A stretch of 39,457 nucleotides of DNA from Parvularia atlantis (taxonomy: Eukaryota). Below, one piece after another: positions 2,833-25,976 of the stretch. A program made the translations under genes and the position numbers. Location of the stretch: NCBI GenBank assembly GCA_943704415.1, contig CALSCO010001754.1, positions 1 through 39,457 on the forward strand, written 5' to 3'. How positions within the stretch are numbered: position 1 is the first letter of the stretch; every line of letters starts with the position of its first letter. The notes beneath the pieces were generated by a model. The model was not told the DNA's origin and ran no database searches. It worked only from the letters and a program-made list of their open reading frames with translations.

Positions 2833-3354
2833 TCACTGCAGGCCCGCGCGACGCGCCTCGTCCGCGTTAGGCAGGAGGCCCATGAGCCGGCCTTCAATTA
2901 TTTTCCCCCCGCGCGACACGCACGTGAGCACACGAACGGCAGCAACAGCAGCGCGCACAGACGGCGCACCGGAGCTGTTCTGGTACGCGAGCATGAAGCC
3001 GCCGATGCTCGCGAAGAGGATCGCGCCCGAGACGCCGAGCGTGACGTTCTGCGTCTGCCTCCGCGCTGCCGCGTGGCCCGCGCGCGCACGTCAGGCCATT
3101 GACCAGGTCGCGCCACGTCGCGCGCCGCCCACGCACTGAACCAGAGGCCGTAGGCGTACCCGCCCCCCGTCGCCACGCCCCACAGCGCGTAGTCGTTCTC
3201 GCTGAAGTTGCCCACAACGTCCCAGAAGCGCGGCACCTCCTTCACGACCGGGTACGGCCGCGGGTCGGTCCTGCACCGCCGCCGCGTTGGCGCGCGTGAG
3301 AGGGGAGGGGGGAGGGGGGCCGCGCGCGCACTCGGAGAGGTGCAGGTTCTTCAT
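2833..3354 (-). CDS. NUXM: Mitochondrial complex I accessory subunit, NUXM / 20.9-kDa family; 4 exons
   Basis: Spliced product MKNLHLSETDPRPYPVVKEVPRFWDVVGNFSENDYALWG...IGGFMLAYQNSSGRLMGLLPNADEA; the YPV..P.F..VV.NF...DY and GF..AYQ.S..RLMG..PN motifs are typical of the family. Confidence 0.85.
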
Positions 3355-3473
3355 CCTGGCGGCGTGTGTACGTAGGTGAAGGTCTAACAGTTGTACGTTA
3401 CATCACAGCCGCTGTGCAGATAGCTTGCAGCCTCACGAACACTTGTGCTTTGCTGCACAGCCGCTGCGTACAG

Positions 3474-6357: not shown

Positions 6358-9300
6358 CTACACGGTTGTCTGTGCGGCGAGCACGAGCATGGCGACGACA
6401 AGCGCGTTCGGCACGCCCGCGCTGCGCCCGGCCTCGTCGCTCGCCAGCACGAAGCGCACGATCCGCGTCGCGTCCAGGTACGCCTGCGCGCGGCCACAGA
6501 CACCCGTCAGCAGAAAAACACGAGCACGGGCAGGCACAGCACCAGCGCGATCACGCGGTCAAGCAGATCGTTGTCGGGCGGCAGGGCGCGCTGCAGCGCC
6601 TCGTAGATGTCGAGCAGGCGCAGCTCGAGCACGGCGCGCACGGGCTCGGTGAAAATCTGCGCGGCGGCCGGCTGCTGCTGCGCCGCGAGCGCGTGCGCAA
6701 AGACCTCGGCCTCGCGCTGCGCCATCAGCGGCGCACGCACGTGCCCGAGCGCCAGCACGACCTCGCCAAAGAGCTGCAGCGTCGCGCTCGCGTCCGGCCG
6801 CAGGCTCAGCCGCTGGATGTGCGCCTCGAGCGGCTCGCCAGGAACGACGAGGCGGCACGTCAGCGCCATGTGTTGCAAAATCTCGAGCGTGAGGCGCGAG
6901 AGCGGCGGCAGGTCGACGATGGCCGTGATCTGCAAGAACGGGCCCTGGAAGATCTTGGCGGCCACGACCGCGCCCCACAGCGCCAGCAGCAGCGTGTCCT
7001 CGTACACCTCGCGGTACTCGCCCGCTCGTGCGGCGTCGCCGCGATTGGCGGCCGCGCGCATCGTGCCCTTGCGCGGGATCCACTCGTCGGCCCACTGCCA
7101 CGCGCGCCGCAGCGTGCGCTCGAGCGGCAGCTCGCCCACCGGCGCGCTCGCGAGCTGCAGCGGGTTGGTGAGCACGCGGTCGACCAGCTCGTTCTCTGCG
7201 TCCGCGGTCAGCGTACGTACTGCCCAGCACACGCCGCAGGGCTACGCACCCAGCTGGCCGCACCACTGCGCCGGCGAAAACACTGTGCCCGTGGCCTGGC
7301 ACGCGAGCGCCGTCGTCTGCTGCCGGTCGAGCGCGAGCAGGCACGTCTTGACGTCGTGCAGCGTCACGGGGCTCCCGAGCGCCATTGCGTCGGCCAGGGC
7401 GTCGCCGCCGGTGAAGTAGCGCTGGCACGCGCCACACGGGCACACGATGAGCTGCACGCAGGCGCAGACGCGTCAGAGGGGCAGAGCAGGCAGCGAGAGC
7501 GCACTTCGTCGACGACCTTGACGCCGGGCTGAGCCGCGGCGAGCACGGTGCGAACGTGGCCCGGGACTAAGGCCGTGCCCAGCAGCTGGCTCTGCAGCAG
7601 AGCGAGTGGGCCGGCCGCCGGTGCCGCGGGGCGCAGGAACACAAGCACGAGCGAGCGCGAGCGCGCAAACCACGCCACGAGCGCGCGCCCGTCCTGCTCA
7701 CGCCGGCCGTTGGCCACGAAGCCGTTGCGCCACGACGCGCCCACGTCCAGGTCCAGCAGCGACGCGCGGCGCACGTCCACCAGCAGCTCCACGCCGAGAT
7801 CGGCCGCCGGCTGCGGCGCGAGACGAAGCACGCGCACGGTGCTCGTCCACGCTGCCGGCTCGACGCGCCACGGCCGCGCTGGCTGCTGCGCGCCCAGACC
7901 CCACGGCAGGAGCAGCTGCTGCAGGCCCGGCACGGTCGGCGTCTTGGCGTCGGCCGGCTCAAACAGCGGCACGGTCACGCCGAGCTCGCACAGGCACGCC
8001 GAGAAGGCCTCGCGCAGCGGCTTGGCCAGACGACGCCACGGCGGCACCTGGCTGAAGACGTCAGCGTGGCGGAAGACGGGCAGCGGCGTCGTCGTGGCTT
8101 CGCCCACTTGGTCGCGATGCTGGTGCTGCACCCAGCGCGGGAGCATCTGGCGCACGGCCGCGAGCGAGTCACCCAGCCACTCGGCCGCAAACACGATCAG
8201 GTCGCCGCCGGCCGCGCACGCCGCACCGCGGTCGCCGCCGCAGTAGAGCACCTCGCCCAGCGCGTGCAAGAAGCTCAGCGCCCGCGCAACCTCGCCGCCA
8301 TCCCGCACGCCGTCGACGTCGGCCCGGCGCGCGACCGGTACGAGCCACCGGCGCGCCTTGACGACCGTCGCACCCACGAGCGGTGCCGTGCCGCCAGCTG
8401 CCGTCGCTGCGCCCGCACCGCCGCCGCTGCCATCGAGCGCTGAGTCGCCGGACGCAGCCGCCGGACCGCGCCGCCGCTCGAGCGGGATGCGCTCCTCGAC
8501 GTCGGTGAGCGAGAGCCGCTCGATGCCGTCGGCCTCGTCGTCGTCGCTGAGGGCTCCGCTCGCGGCCGCACCGCCTCGACGCCACAGCCGGTTGTGCGGG
8601 CGCAGTTCGGGGCTGGCGGGCGAGGCGCTGCGCTGCGCGTTGGCGGGATGGGCGAGCTGGCGCACGTCGTCCGACTGCGAGAACGAGAGCGAGTTGCTTT
8701 TGGGGCGCATCTTGCCCGTGCGCGGCGACTGCAGCCCGGGCGCGGCGAGGCCATCGCCGACGTCGATGCTGACGATCGTGTTGGAGTGCGCGCTCGTGAA
8801 CACCTGCAGCACGCCCGGCGACGTCGGCCGGCTGCCCGGGTTGCTGCTGCCGCCGCCGCCGCCGCCGCCCGCGTCGCCGCCCAAGCCCGTGCTGGGCGAG
8901 CGGTGCCCGCCGCCGCCACCGCCGAACCAACTCGACAGCGCAAAGCCCGACGACGCGTGCGGTAGCGGCTGGTGCAGCGCCGTGCGGCTCGAGAGCAGCT
9001 GCAGATGCTCCTCGCGCACGCGGTCGACCAGCGCCTGGTCGCGCCAGCGCCAGATCTGCCGCCACACGTCCGCGTACGTCGGCGGCAGGTCCATCGCGAC
9101 ATACGGGCGCGTGCCGACGATGGTCAGGAGGTGGTTGCGCAGCAGCTGCACGTCTGCGCGCTCGTGCAGGTTGAGGCAAGGGATGATGTGCATCGACCCG
9201 GCCAGGTGCGCGCGCTCGACGGCCGAGCTGACCACGGCCAGGCACACCTTGGCAAACGCGTGCTTCTGCGCGGGCGTGGGCCGGTCGACGCCGAGCGCGC

Positions 9301-19561: not shown

Positions 19562-22500
19562 ATGGCCGCGGAGGGCACGGTGCACGAGGCGGCGCGGCAG
19601 GGCGACGTGCGCCGCGTCGAGCTGCTGCTGCAGCAGGGCGCGAGCGCGCTGGCGCAGGACGCCGGTACGCTGCCGTTCGGCGTGCAGCAGCGGTGCGCGC
19701 ACCTGACGCGGCCTGTGAGCAGACGGCATGACGCCGCTGCACGTCGCCGTGCGCCACGACCGCAACGACGTCATGCTCGCGCTGCTGCGGCGCGGCGTGC
19801 CCGTCGACGTGGCCGACGCCGCCGGCAAGACGCCACTGCACCTCGCGGCCGAGACCGGCCAGCCGGACGTGCTGCAGCATTTGTTTGAGCACATGGCCGA
19901 CGTCGACGCCGAGACGCACAGTGCGCGCCCGCCGGACGTGTTGCGCTCGCCGCGCCACTCAAGCACCCGCACGCGCGCAGCCGGATGGACGCCGCTGCAC
20001 TGCGCCGTCGCGCACGGCCACGCCGCCGTCGTGCTGCTGCTGCTGGAACGCGGCTGCGCCGTCAACGCAGCCACCGCCGGTAGCACGCACGGCGAACTGC
20101 ACCGCGCAAGTGCTGACAGCGTGCGCGCGCACACATAGACGTGCAGACGCCGCTGCATCTCGCGTGCGCGCGCGGCAGCCACAGCCTCGCGCAGCTGCTC
20201 GCGGCGCACGGCGCGGATCTGAACGCGGTCGACGCCGGTGCGCGGCCTGTGGGTGGCGCCTGTTCTTGCCTGATTTGCGCATCGCAGTGCGCCGGTCGCC
20301 GCTGCACCTGGCCGTGCAGAGTGAGCACGACGAGGTCGTCGCGTGGCTGCTGCAGAGCGGCGCGCGGCCCGCGCCCGTGGACCGATGTGCGGCGCCGTGC
20401 GCGCTTCTTGTCGCGTTCAAGCTGACACACGCGCACGGCACGCAGACGACCGCACGCCGCTGCTCATTGCCTGCACGATCCCGCGCGCGTCGCTCGTCGC
20501 CGTGCTGATCGAGCACGGCGGCTTCGTGCCGGCCATCCGCGGCGGTGCGGTGCGCGCACGTCATTGCACACTCGGCTGAGCACAACGGCAGACGGCCCTG
20601 CGTCGGTGCTGCTGGCGACGTGCCGCGCGCTGCTGGAGCACGTGACGAGCGCAGGGGCCGGTGTGAACGCGACGCTGCTGCTGGCTGGCTTCGAAACCGT
20701 CATCGGCCTGCTGCTCAAGCACGGCGCCGACGTCGACGCGCGCTCGGCCGACCTGCAGCAGACGCCGCTCATCTACGCGTGCCTGGCCGGTAACGTTCGC
20801 CTCGCGCAGCGCCTGATCGACCACGGCGCGAGCCTGGACGCGCAAGACAGCAGTGCGTGGCCGCACAGCCCCGCCGGCTGCTGCGCTCAAACCGGTGCGC
20901 CCCCCTCGCAGCCGGCGCCACCGCGCTGCACTACGCCACGCGCAAGGGCCACGTCGCCGTCATGCAGACGCTGCTGCGCAACCACGCCGACATCGGCGTG
21001 AAGGACGCTTGTGCGTGGCCGTCTGCGCCCGCTGCATGCCCCGCCTCACGCGCGCTGAGCAGACGACCGCACGCCGCTGCACGACGCGGCCATGCGCGGC
21101 TTCGCCGTCACAGCGGCCGAGCTGGTCGAGCGCGGCGCGGCGATCAACGCGCGCGACTGCGGTGTGCGCCTGCGCCCTTGCGCGCTGCGATGCTCACGCG
21201 CGCGCCGCCGCACAGACCTCAACACGCCGCTCGCCCTCGCCGTCAAGCACCGCTTCATTGAGGCCGCGCAAGTGCTGCTGTCGCTTGGAGCGGACCCGCA
21301 CGCCAAGAACGGTGTGCGCGGGCAGCGTGGCACGTAGGAGCTCATTGTGTACCGCATGCAGCTGCGCATCAGTCGCCCGGCGAGCTGGCGCCCGAGGACC
21401 TCTCCGCGCACGTGCAGCAGCTGTTTCGGCCCGGTGTGTGCGCGGGCCCGTGCAGACGTGTCGCGCCTCTGACGCAGCGGTCGCGCAGCCGTCGACCTGC
21501 AGGACCGCCAGCTGCTCAACATCCCCGAGGCCGCCGTGCAGCAGACGCGCCCATTTGTGCTGCGCCTGACCAACAACTGCCTGCACGCGGGCTGCCTGGA
21601 CCAGCTCGGCCGCGCGGCGCCGGCGCTGCTCACGGGCCTGTTCCTCGACGGCAACGTCGTGTTTGGGAGCATCGCGGCGCAGCACATGGCCTCGCTGCGC
21701 ACGCTCTACAGCCTTTCGCTCGCCGGCTGCAACCTGAGTAGCAAGGACGTCGTCGGCGTGTGCGCCGCGCCCGCACTGCGCACGCTCGTGCTCGCCGACA
21801 ACGCCCTGGGCGACCTACCGCGCGAGTTCAGCCAGCTGCAACAGCTGCGCCGCCTCGTGCTCGCGCACACCGCGCTCACGGCCGTGCCCAACGTCCTGTC
21901 GACGCTGCATACGCTGACGTCGCTCGACCTGCGCGACAACGCCATCTCGTCGGTGCCGCACGGTGCGCGTGCTTGCATCCTGCCTGGCCACGCAAGCACT
22001 CACGCGCGTGCGGGCTGCAGCGGTCGCGCTCCTGCCCAACCTCGTGCACCTCGACCTCGGCGGATGCACGCTGACGGGCGCGCTGGCGTTTGTGCGGCGC
22101 GAGCGCTCGGCCAACGTGCTCGCGTTCCTGCGGGACGTCGCATGGGAGAGCGAGCGGGTGTTTGCGACGCGCGTCGTTGCGCTCGGGCACCGCGGCACGG
22201 GCAAGACGACGCTCTGCAGCGCGCTCTTCCCGCCGCGCGGCGTCCTGCTCAAGCGCCGCACCAACGTGATGAACGTGCTGATGGACACGTGGAACGTGCC
22301 GATGGACACGTGGAACGAGCGCCTGTGCGAGCTCGAGTGGGGCGCGTTTGTCTACTCGCGCCCGGGCAAGGGCGGCCTGTGGGAGCGCGCGGCGCCGATC
22401 GACCTCGCCCGCTCGCGCGTCATGCCGCTGCCGGACAGCCACACGGACTTTCGCATCCTGCTCGAGGGCGAGTACCGGCCGTTTGACTTTCGGTGCACCC

Positions 22501-25500
22501 GCTGCCGGGCTTGCTGCGACCGCGCGGGTTAACGTAGACGCATGCGTGCGCGCGCAGGTGCGCTACCGCGAGCGAGTGCGCCGACTGGCTGTACGCGCTG
22601 CGTCAGCGCGTGGCCATCGCCGTCATGCCGCTGCCCAAGCGGCCGTGGCTGGCCGCGCGCACGTTCACCAGCAGCCAGCTCGACGACGCCCAGCTCTACG
22701 CCCCGCCGAGCTACCCCGCGCTGATCACGAGCGCGGCCGCGGCCAAGCAGCGCAGCAACCGCGTCCCGCATGGCGCCAAGCTCGCCGTGCACGTGTACGA
22801 CGTCGGCGGCCAGCGGCACATCTTTGATGGGCATCGGCTACTGCTGGCGCGGAGTGTGCCGACGCTGTACCTGGTCGCGTGGGACACGCGCACGCGCAGC
22901 TCGTCGCGCCGGATGGTGGCCCTGGCCGAGTTGCGGCACTGGCTCGCGGCGCTGCAGCAGCAGCACCTCGCCGCGCCGGACGACCCCGCTCGCGCCGGCG
23001 CGCTCGTGTACATCGTCGGGACGCACGCGGACGAGCTCGCGGACGACCCGCTCAAGCTTGAGCAGTGCACGCACGCCGTCATGGCGCTCGTGCAGGCGCT
23101 CAGGTTTGCCCTGCCGTTCCGCATCGTCAACATCGACAGCTGCAGCGCGACGCAGGCCCACCAGCTCGCCCAGACCGCGCTCGCCGACCTCGCGAGCCAG
23201 CATCACCTGGGCGAGGAGCTGCCGCGCGTCTACCTGCGCGTGAGCCGCTGCCTACTTCAGGCGAGCCTGCACTTCCAGGGCACGGCGCTGCTCACGCAGC
23301 TGCAGAGCGTCGCAGCGCGCTCGCAGGACGGCGATGTGCCCGCTGCCGGGCGACTGCGACCGCGCGTGGTAAGCGACCAGACGCCGACGACGACGCTACC
23401 GCCGGCTGACGGTGCCGCAACGCCAATTGTGCCATCTGCGGTGATGCCAGCCCGCGTGCGCACGCCCGTGACGCCGAGCGAGGTGCTCGTGCGTGCCGAT
23501 GCGCTGGACGCCGGCATCGTGAGCGGCCTGTCGAGCGCGGCCGTGCTGCGCGTCTTGCGCTTCTGGGCGCGCCGCGGCGAGCTGCTCGGGCCGGCCGGCG
23601 GCGCCAAGGGCGTCGTCGCGGGGGCGCCGCTTTGGCTGCTCGAGGAGCTGTTTGCCGAGACGGCACACCGCCTTCGAGCGCAGCTGACGCCGGCTACGGG
23701 CGACGAGCAGGGACCGTTCGGCTCCGCGGGCGACTTTGTCTTCATCGACGACGTGCGCGACAGCGACGCAGCACACACGCCTGTCCTCGAGCATGCCCGC
23801 CTCTTCGCCGCGCCGTACGCCGGCATCTGGGCCGCGCTCCTCGACAGCCCCGCGCAGCTCGAGGCGGCCTTCACCGTGCTGCACGCGCTCGAGCTCGCCG
23901 TGCCGTGCGACGGCGCGCAGATCGGCCGGAGCGACCCCGCGCGGCCCTTCCGTGACCGCGCATCGTTCATCCCCGCGAGCCTACCGAGCTTTCCGCCGCC
24001 CGCCTTCGAGTGGCCTGCCGCGCCCGCCAGCGATGGCGCGACGACGAGTGACCGCGTGCACGGCGTGGAGCTCGACGGCGTGCCGCTCGGCTTCCGCTCG
24101 CTACTCTTTGCTCGCCTCGCCGTGGCGCTGCCTGGCGCGGACCTGGCAAGCAGCTGGCAGTACGTCGCTTCAGCGCACTCGCTCGCTGCGCACTGACGTC
24201 TCTTGTGCTCGCGCGGGGCAGGAGCGGCCTGCTGTTTGTGCAGGGCGAGCGCTCGATCCTGGTGACCGTGCACGACAACACCGCGCGCGTGCGCGTGTGC
24301 GTGCGCGGGCCCCGCGACGCCAGCGACGTCTTTGACGTGTGCCTCGGCACGCCGGCCAACCCGGGCGTGCTGCGGCTGGTGCTGCTCGACCACTTCCCGG
24401 ACACGCGCGTGGCCAACTACGTGCGTGCGCCCGTCCGCCATCACGAGCGCTGATATGCACGCGCGTGTGCAGTTTGTCGAGTGCACGTGCGCAGGCTGCC
24501 GCCGGGTGCACGCGTGGCAGTGGACGAGTGCGGCAGGCACGCACGTCATCAAGGTGCGCGAGCCGATCAGTGCCTGTGCGCGTGCCCTTACACGTACGCG
24601 CATGCAGGACAAGACGATGGGCATGCTCGGGCGGCGCGAGCTCTGGCACGACATTGCGCGCGCACTCGAGCCGTTTGTGCACCCGAGCGAGCCCCCGCAC
24701 GACTACTCGCTTAAGGAGCTGTTCCAGGCGGTCGGCGCGCACCAGCAATCGGGGGCCGCGCCGACGCTAGCATGCGTGCGCACGGGCGAGACGGTGACGC
24801 TGGCGTCGCTGATGGAGGGTGTTCGTGCGTGCTGCACCCTGCACCCGTCGTGCCTGACGCATCTCACGCGTTCGCCCGTCCCGCAGCGCTGCGCAAGACG
24901 AGCGGCAAGACGCGTGACCCAGTCTCGAAGCGGCTGACGCTGGTGCGGTCGCGGGTGGCATTGCCACGTGCCCTAACGCGCGTTTGTGCCGTCCAGCGCA
25001 CGCCGCTTGTGCCGCTGGTGCTGCCGAGCGTGATGGGCTCGCCGCCGACGTCGCCGCCCGCGACCGCGCGAGCCACCGTAGCCTCGCCGGCGCTGGCGCC
25101 GTCGCCGCTGTCTCCGCCGCTGCTGCCGCCCGCTGCCGCTGCGCGCCGGTCGTCGGTGGCGTCGGGCGCACCGCATCCGGCAGGCGTGCGCAGCCGCTTG
25201 CAGGAGATGCAGGACTACGTGCGCGCGTATTACAAGCTGGCGGACGAGCGCGCGCTCACGCGCCGCGGGCGTCTGAACGCGACCATCTTCGAGCAGCCGC
25301 TGACGTGCGCATACTTTGATGTACTAGTCGAGGCGCTCGCGGGCGTGTGCCTGGCGGGCCTGCTGCTGCGCGCGGGTGTGTGCGGTGTGGCCGAGCTGAC
25401 GGACTTTGGCGTCGCGACGACGGCGGGGCCCTGTGCGGCGCTTGTTGCGGCGCTCGCGTCGGCGATCGTACTGCAGATCTCGACGACCGACGAGGAGGTG

Positions 25501-25976
25501 CGTGCGCTCTCGTCTCTGTCCGCACTCGACTCACATGTCGCGCGCAGGCGCGTGACCGCCTGCTCGTCTTTGCGCTCGCAGGCAGCCGCGACCGCACCTT
25601 GGCACTAGTGGAGCGCCTCGCCGAGCTCGGGTGCATGGTGCGCGCGGCGCAGGTGCTCGCGATCGACCAGCCGCCGGCCGACCAGCCGTCGGCGCTCGTG
25701 CTGAGCCTGTGTGGCGCGGATGTGGCGCGGGAGGCGATGGCGGCGCGCATCGCCTGGGACGGCAAGGCGGCGGCCAGCACGGCGCAGCGCCTGGTGCGTT
25801 CTTGCTCGCTGCGCCGCGATGTGTGGCGCTGACAACGTGCACGGCAGGCGTGGCATGACGCGGACGCGCTCGTGCAGCTGTGGCTGCAGCAGCCCACACC
25901 CGCGCGCGAGCTCACGGAGCCGCCGCAGCTGGACGAGTTTGCGCAGACCCTGGCCATGGTTATGCAGGGCCGGTGA
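19562..25976 (+). CDS. Roco family protein B: ankyrin repeats - LRR - Roc GTPase with inserted PH domain - COR - unknown helical C-terminal domain; no kinase; about 20 exons
   Basis: Ankyrin repeats (GMTPLH, GKTPLH, GWTPLH and others); LRRs LRTLVLADNAL and LTSLDLRDNAI; P-loop RVVALGHRGTGKTT; G3 VYDVGGQ...H; LYLVAWD; G4 IVGTHAD; COR VLRFWARRGEL, FIPASL, VPLGFRSLLFARL; CTCAGC...LAC. Confidence 0.87.

Follow-up and report, generated by a model that had tools for sequence, protein, structure and literature searches.

The window analysed here is a stretch of 39,457 nucleotides from Parvularia atlantis (NCBI GenBank assembly GCA_943704415.1, contig CALSCO010001754.1, positions 1 to 39,457 of the forward strand), a eukaryotic contig of approximately 70% G+C with short introns. 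A motif scan of the window located two P-loop genes, Roco-A and Roco-B, for which gene models were assembled by choosing introns among donor, branch and acceptor candidates. Both are kinase-less ankyrin-LRR-Roc-COR genes with a PH domain inside Roc. Roco-B (19562..25976, + strand) has 21 exons and encodes 1766 amino acids; Roco-A (6358..12950, - strand) has 15 exons and encodes 1943, and neither translation contains an internal stop. The domain order is shared: ankyrin repeats, leucine-rich repeats (LRR), Roc with the PH domain, COR and a helical tail. Over the 1030 alignment columns that extend from the ankyrin repeats through Roc, the two proteins are 33% identical, with an additional but weak match in COR.

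In Roco-B (+ strand) the G1 motif or P-loop, GHRGTGKTT (type GxxxxGKT), lies at 22185..22211 and aligns with the P-loop of a profile of bacterial Roco proteins. Strands 1 to 7 of the predicted PH insert follow at 22236..22492 in the same exon, as delimited by an alignment of the four-member family described below. A GT-AG intron of 65 nucleotides in phase 2 (22493..22557) separates these strands from the C-terminal PH helix with its conserved Trp (22558..22621), which the structural model of the Roco-A orthologue shows as helix 164-186. The remainder of Roc (22646..23245), placed by HHalign and profile alignment, comprises strand 2, an extra helix with linker, G3 (DVGGQ, from 22799), G4 (GTHAD, from 23018) and the last helix. 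COR spans 23462..24830 (HHalign, and weakly Pfam in the orthologue) and has a CxCxxC motif (24482) at its end. A first-pass annotation had listed GHRGTGKTT, the insert, VYDVGGQ and GTHAD in Roco-B, and both the motif scan and the gene models confirm their places.

In Roco-A (- strand) the P-loop is at 10220, the PH insert at 9797..10166 and G4 at 9316. The insert is interrupted by a phase-2 intron of 70 nucleotides (9927-9858) in the same codon as the PH intron of Roco-B. G3 is degenerate, reading DVNHG instead of DxxGQ (9554..9568), and DVNRG in the orthologue. Both orthologues, which come from a second organism, score above the Pfam cut-off for LRR_8, and the LRR stretches of the two paralogues can be aligned. 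Roc is thus preceded by LRR and followed by COR, as in Roco proteins, and no kinase comes after COR as it does in Roco kinases: the kinase motif set is absent from both gene models, and the tail exons scanned with Pfam gave no match.

Identity and position of the insert

In both genes the PH domain, about 100 residues long, occupies the switch I loop, directly behind the helix of the P-loop. For comparison we collected 121 prokaryotic matches to the Roc motif, 120 of which have the P-loop 42-61 residues before G3 and 71 of which are long enough for a profile. The spacing between G1 and G3 is 177-243 residues in the four proteins of the family, against 42-61 in those 120 bacterial Rocos. When the PH domain is deleted, a single uninterrupted alignment of Roco-B with the bacterial Roco profile results, from helix 0 to the COR entry, at 27.1 bits (maximum for shuffled sequences 3.7, with 206 of 500 shuffles reported). 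The orthologue reaches 11.8 bits against the 71-sequence profile (shuffle maximum 6.6, with 272 of 500 reported). With HHalign against 45 bacterial Rocos, the C-terminal half of Roc is matched at a probability of 87.9 (E 3e-6) and COR at 93.5 (E 2e-7). In the orthologue, Pfam COR-A (E 0.018) and COR-B (E 0.014) are found in this order, both under the cut-off, and the CxCxxC motif after COR also occurs in 36 of 67 bacterial Rocos.

Judged from sequence and model, the insert is a complete PH domain, a predicted sandwich of seven strands closed by a helix with a conserved Trp. In the Roco-A orthologue, where it is contiguous, it scores 30.6 bits against Pfam PH (PF00169, cut-off 25.1), and the 5' PH exon of Roco-A alone is matched with E 0.021. 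The Atlas ranks PH clusters first for the insert (0.92, 160 shared features), and a profile of the four family rows finds PH domains in 6 out of 6 matches among the PDB sequences, each of them weak (E 0.04-1.4).

The first-pass annotation had also proposed a structure prediction. We modelled the part of the orthologue between helix 0 and the end of Roc with AlphaFold2, using the 4 family rows together with 36 prokaryotic Roco rows, and the model shows an LRRK-like Roc plus a PH domain at moderate confidence. Six PH strands (pLDDT, the predicted local distance difference test, 75-84) and the long helix are well formed, even though no outside PH rows were supplied. A Foldseek search with the model returns LRRK1 first (E 1.5e-3), then PH domains (ASAP1, FAPP1, CERT), LRRK2 and Arf-like GTPases. 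Folded without an alignment, P0002, one of the insert-bearing relatives, reaches a pLDDT of 33.

Splicing and conservation of the insert

Transcript evidence comes from run X2, a public set of contigs labelled as RNA only by guess, in which GT-AG joints show a spliced origin. Among the joints listed, at least 10 of the 20 predicted introns of Roco-B are exact GT-AG joints; one further X2 match, which has a side of 23 bases, turns up in run X1, a DNA-like run, as well and does not represent an intron. One X2 contig joins 22212-22491 and 22557-23440 in one piece and removes exactly 22493-22557. It starts just behind the P-loop, crosses the PH exon and extends beyond G3 and G4. Because this single contig spans the insert with the intron precisely removed, the PH domain is present in Roco-B mRNA, and splicing out of the whole insert, which would have spoken against the first-pass annotation, is not what X2 shows. 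For Roco-A joints are seen in X2 for 7 of 14 introns, plus one non-canonical match. Its PH-coding exon is covered by X2 contigs (9974-10387), and no X2 contig bridges the PH intron at 9927-9858. The Roco-A orthologue, however, has no intron at this position and holds the insert contiguously in one open frame, which independently confirms the join. Run X1 covers the stretch without a break and is possibly the source of the window, so it is not independent support; runs X3 and X4 contain short pieces only. Roco-A also has a predicted GC-AG intron at an ankyrin boundary (11451-11395, - strand), unbridged in the RNA contigs shown.

One exon encodes both the P-loop and the PH strands, another the PH helix together with G3 and G4; since these exons also encode G-domain motifs, the PH domain cannot be skipped as a clean cassette. 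Exon shuffling was considered as the origin of the PH domain and is unsupported, as no intron flanks it on either side.

The claim that a phase-2 intron occupies the same position in both paralogues is borne out: in both genes it cuts the Arg codon preceding the Cys with which the last PH helix begins. The Roco-B orthologue has an intron of 64 nucleotides at the same codon and in the same phase. In a global alignment, however, 11 of the 14 Roco-A introns share codon and phase with Roco-B; many of these are ankyrin-boundary introns, and the last one lies in the tail, where the alignment is weak. The PH intron is therefore a case of plain inheritance between paralogues rather than evidence of function, and its absence from the Roco-A orthologue likewise makes it uninformative on this point. 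The Roco-A orthologue (L002 4788-7130) lacks three consecutive introns that are common to Roco-A and Roco-B (LRR start, LRR end and PH), which resembles a run of intron loss.

The two inserts align significantly; a lack of such alignment would have counted against the first-pass annotation. Pairwise alignment gives 39 identities in 97 aligned residues, with a local score of 137, where 2000 shuffles reached at most 53. A HMMER search with the Roco-A exon against 1.84 billion representatives yields six matches: two orthologues, one insert-free Roc fragment, one protein with multiple PH domains and two repeat artefacts. The insert-bearing relatives among them are P0002 (56% identical) and P0003 (41%). 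A metagenome scan reduces 131 pattern matches to five loci, which are 99.8-100% identical in their overlaps and make up a single region from one organism (57% G+C).

Orthologous inserts are more similar (54/98 and 45/92 identical residues) than paralogous ones (39/92 and 33/94). This difference suggests the order of events: insertion, then duplication, then speciation. On the same ground, recent gene conversion between the inserts was rejected. Between orthologues, identity in the PH domain is 59% and 50%, comparable to the region around G1 (61% and 56%) and the C-terminal half of Roc (50% and 43%), against 37% and 40% in the linker that follows the PH domain and 24% in the low-complexity stretch of Roco-B. 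Overall, the G-domain parts are 43-61% identical and the linkers 24-40%; the PH domain matches the G domain in conservation and exceeds the linkers, which argues for constraint. The sequence comparison therefore supports that the insertion predates the duplication, as both orthologues carry it, and that it was kept under constraint. Of the argument that the insert is probably functional, the constraint holds up, while the shared intron contributes nothing.

The ratio of nonsynonymous to synonymous substitutions (dN/dS), another check proposed at the outset, turned out to be uninformative and was rejected as evidence. Counted values are dN 0.58 and dS 0.58 for the paralogues and 0.40/0.96 and 0.49/0.97 for the orthologues, where dS is saturated and a lower bound, with third positions at 91-93% G+C.

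Further relatives were not found with word-index protein searches (the Roco-A exon and the Roco-B orthologue exon, both against longer proteins), in which blanks are weak evidence and one search returned only P0002 itself. Among viral contigs, 20 pattern matches contained no relatives. So far the insert-bearing Rocos thus appear to form a narrow clade of four genes in two species; the insert defines a family to that extent, and nothing wider emerged from the searches made.

A tandem duplication of 21 bases (22281-22317, + strand) adds seven residues to the loop between PH strands 1 and 2 of Roco-B. It is absent from the other three proteins and present without gaps in the RNA contig.

Motifs and proposed mechanism

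G1 (GxxxxGK[TS]) and G4 are present in all four proteins. The switch I motif T-x-G-[IVLM], in contrast, is found in none of them, against 70 of 71 bacterial Rocos. The pairs differ at G3: DxxGQ in both Roco-B proteins and DVN[HR]G in both Roco-A proteins, which also lack the switch II signature. As G1, DxxGQ and G4 survive a sequence divergence of about 50% in the Roco-B pair, selection on nucleotide binding is suggested there. With respect to lipids, the K-xn-[KR]-x-R signature, located in strands 1-2, is typical of PH domains that bind phosphoinositides with high affinity. The strand-1 Lys-Arg and the strand-2 Arg are present in all four proteins.

We hold with moderate confidence that these genes encode expressed, kinase-less Rocos in which the PH domain at switch I likely tethers the G domain to a membrane or a partner protein, Roco-B being a predicted nucleotide switch and Roco-A likely a pseudo-GTPase. 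An ancestral ankyrin-LRR-Roc-COR gene would have received a single insertion in its variable switch I loop, followed by local duplication and then by speciation. Roco-B would bind GTP/GDP via G1, G3 and G4, and its nucleotide state would be relayed through switch II to COR, as in bacterial Roco proteins. The PH domain, only two or three residues from helix 1, may hold the nucleotide pocket at the membrane with weak lipid affinity, and may stand in for switch I as a docking or outer surface, at the position of the helical domain of G-alpha. Roco-A could serve as a nucleotide-binding scaffold or partner. A passage of PMC6337361 describes Roco switch I as variable in length and switch II as the relay of the nucleotide state, a route described for CtRoco.

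A number of observations weigh against this reading. Scores for Pfam Roc and COR stay under the cut-off throughout, and profiles of the C-terminal half of Roc and of COR retrieved no LRRK or bacterial Roco chains from the PDB sequences, which indicates that the family is strongly diverged. The structural model is of moderate quality (pLDDT 68, predicted template modelling score 0.60), PH strand 1 is not resolved in it, its Roc part was guided by the supplied bacterial Roco rows, and no Foldseek match reaches E 0.001. Without the switch I Thr, GTP hydrolysis by Roco-B may be poor. The lipid signature is only partial: in all four proteins its middle position holds Gln or Asn with an acidic residue after it, and since the middle basic residue is replaced, tight phosphoinositide binding is not predicted. 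Finally, RNA support consists of contigs of one run, and the proposed mechanism is drawn from sequence and model.

The incomplete lipid signature also suits a different role, in which the PH domain works internally, as a lid on the nucleotide pocket or as its regulator, comparable to the helical domain of G-alpha, instead of anchoring the protein to the membrane. That the PH domain sits straight after helix 1 with nearly no linker would fit such a role. So would its conservation between paralogues, which exceeds that of the C-terminal half of Roc (39/92 against 46/152), as expected of a structural contact. Against it, the PH domain is equally kept in Roco-A despite the degenerate G3, and the basic residues of strands 1 and 2 are kept in four out of four proteins; we consider this role possible though distinctly doubtful. 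If, on the other hand, the insertion had destroyed switch I, both proteins might be pseudo-GTPase scaffolds in which the Roc fold merely carries the PH domain. The complete loss of T-x-G and the weak Roc scores point in this direction, but the retention of G1, DxxGQ and G4 in the Roco-B pair speaks for selection on nucleotide binding, and makes this reading unlikely.

Long non-conserved insertions have been reported in the Roc domain of Rocos from brown algae (in a passage of PMC11378527), which could argue for a tolerated passenger; the insert might also be an artefact of the gene models (two genes, or a skipped exon). Both are largely refuted and highly improbable: the PH exons are shared with the P-loop and with G3/G4 and allow no clean skipping, the PH domain is found in spliced contigs and in one open frame in the orthologue, and it is conserved like the core. 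Beyond the tethering that we favour, one might speculate about a distinct Roco subfamily where PH replaces switch I, an active Roco-B and a pseudo-GTPase Roco-A from one gene cluster dimerise via COR, and membrane binding by PH drives the Roc cycle rather than guanine nucleotide exchange factors or GTPase-activating proteins. We regard this extended scheme as quite improbable.

Related proteins and neighbouring genes

Close counterparts are the kinase-less LRR-Roc-COR Rocos (the bacterial CtRoco type and the MASL1/MFHAS1 group), which share the order LRR, helix 0, Roc, COR without a kinase, the signature of switch II and the following strand, and CxCxxC after COR. The window genes differ from these in the N-terminal ankyrin array, the PH domain within switch I, the absence of the Thr motif of switch I, the helical tail and the low-complexity insert between Roc and COR. 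The tail, of about 220-300 residues (6358-7250, - strand; 25180-25976, + strand), lies at the position of the kinase in other Rocos. It is 58% identical between the Roco-A orthologues, aligns only weakly to the Roco-B tail and has no match in Pfam or the PDB, a search with a tail profile against PDB sequences included. The long low-complexity inserts separate Roc from the COR body at about 8960-8440 (- strand) and 23250-23460 (+ strand) and are also present in both orthologues, with unlike sequences.

LRRK1 and the Parkinson's disease protein LRRK2 have the same ankyrin-LRR-Roc-COR order, LRRK1 being the top fold match and matching the stretch from LRR to P-loop by sequence. The G4 motif of LRRK2 is of the VGTHxD type, like that of the window genes. 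These differ, however, in lacking a kinase and WD40 and in the PH insertion, and nothing points to orthology. Dictyostelium Roco5 and Roco6 are alike in having a PH domain within a Roco protein; it follows RhoGEF in Roco5 and COR in Roco6, in both cases outside Roc, and is accompanied by kinases. The text of Figure S3 of PMC1420674 includes a PH label in its Roco drawings.

Outside the Rocos, the arrangement resembles that of G-alpha, whose helical insert sits after helix 1, at switch I, and which keeps the switch I Thr. The window insert is a PH domain and not a helical domain, and the likeness is one of analogous build, not of membership. Parts of bioRxiv 2020.10.31.363457 describe both how a helical domain inserted in a Ras-superfamily G domain made G-alpha and how PH accretion provides a membrane anchor to Arf-family GTPases, as in the PH-Arf fusions of choanoflagellates and trypanosomatids. 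In those fusions the PH domain is N-terminal on a long linker, whereas the window genes carry it inside the G domain.

No description of a PH domain inside Roc was found among the papers searched; domain drawings in the 2003 and 2008 family papers and the 2010 Dictyostelium survey could bear on this. The genes represent a real, expressed, conserved and apparently undescribed variant of Roco architecture in two species. Its interest lies in where the insertion sits, in the missing switch I Thr and in the pair of one intact and one degenerate copy, rather than in the intron. Roc switching and membrane recruitment are still debated for LRRK2, and a natural Roc with PH in place of switch I would show that switch I is dispensable in Roc, providing a compact test case for whether the Roc cycle runs via switch II and COR alone. 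This build also explains the escape from Pfam Roc searches, and Roco surveys may undercount such proteins.

The window and the second organism have a gene order in common: Atg3-like, U2A'-like, Roco-A, TPR, calcium pump and Roco-B, where neighbour names were read from translations and are not database calls. This order of six genes (window 3470-25976 against L001-L003) is kept between organisms of 70% and 57% G+C, with rearranged flanks. Beyond Roco-B the window has kinase, small membrane-protein and GST-like genes, and the second organism has an endonuclease III-like gene beyond Atg3, again named by reading. A small intron-rich gene at about 2870-3360 (- strand) resembles NUXM, the 21-kDa complex I subunit; L003 contains its counterpart, and the gene may help to place the lineage. 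Microsatellites consisting of long (GA)n/(TC)n tracts are found at about 2655-2725, upstream of the kinase gene, and at about 19030-19105, between the calcium pump and Roco-B.

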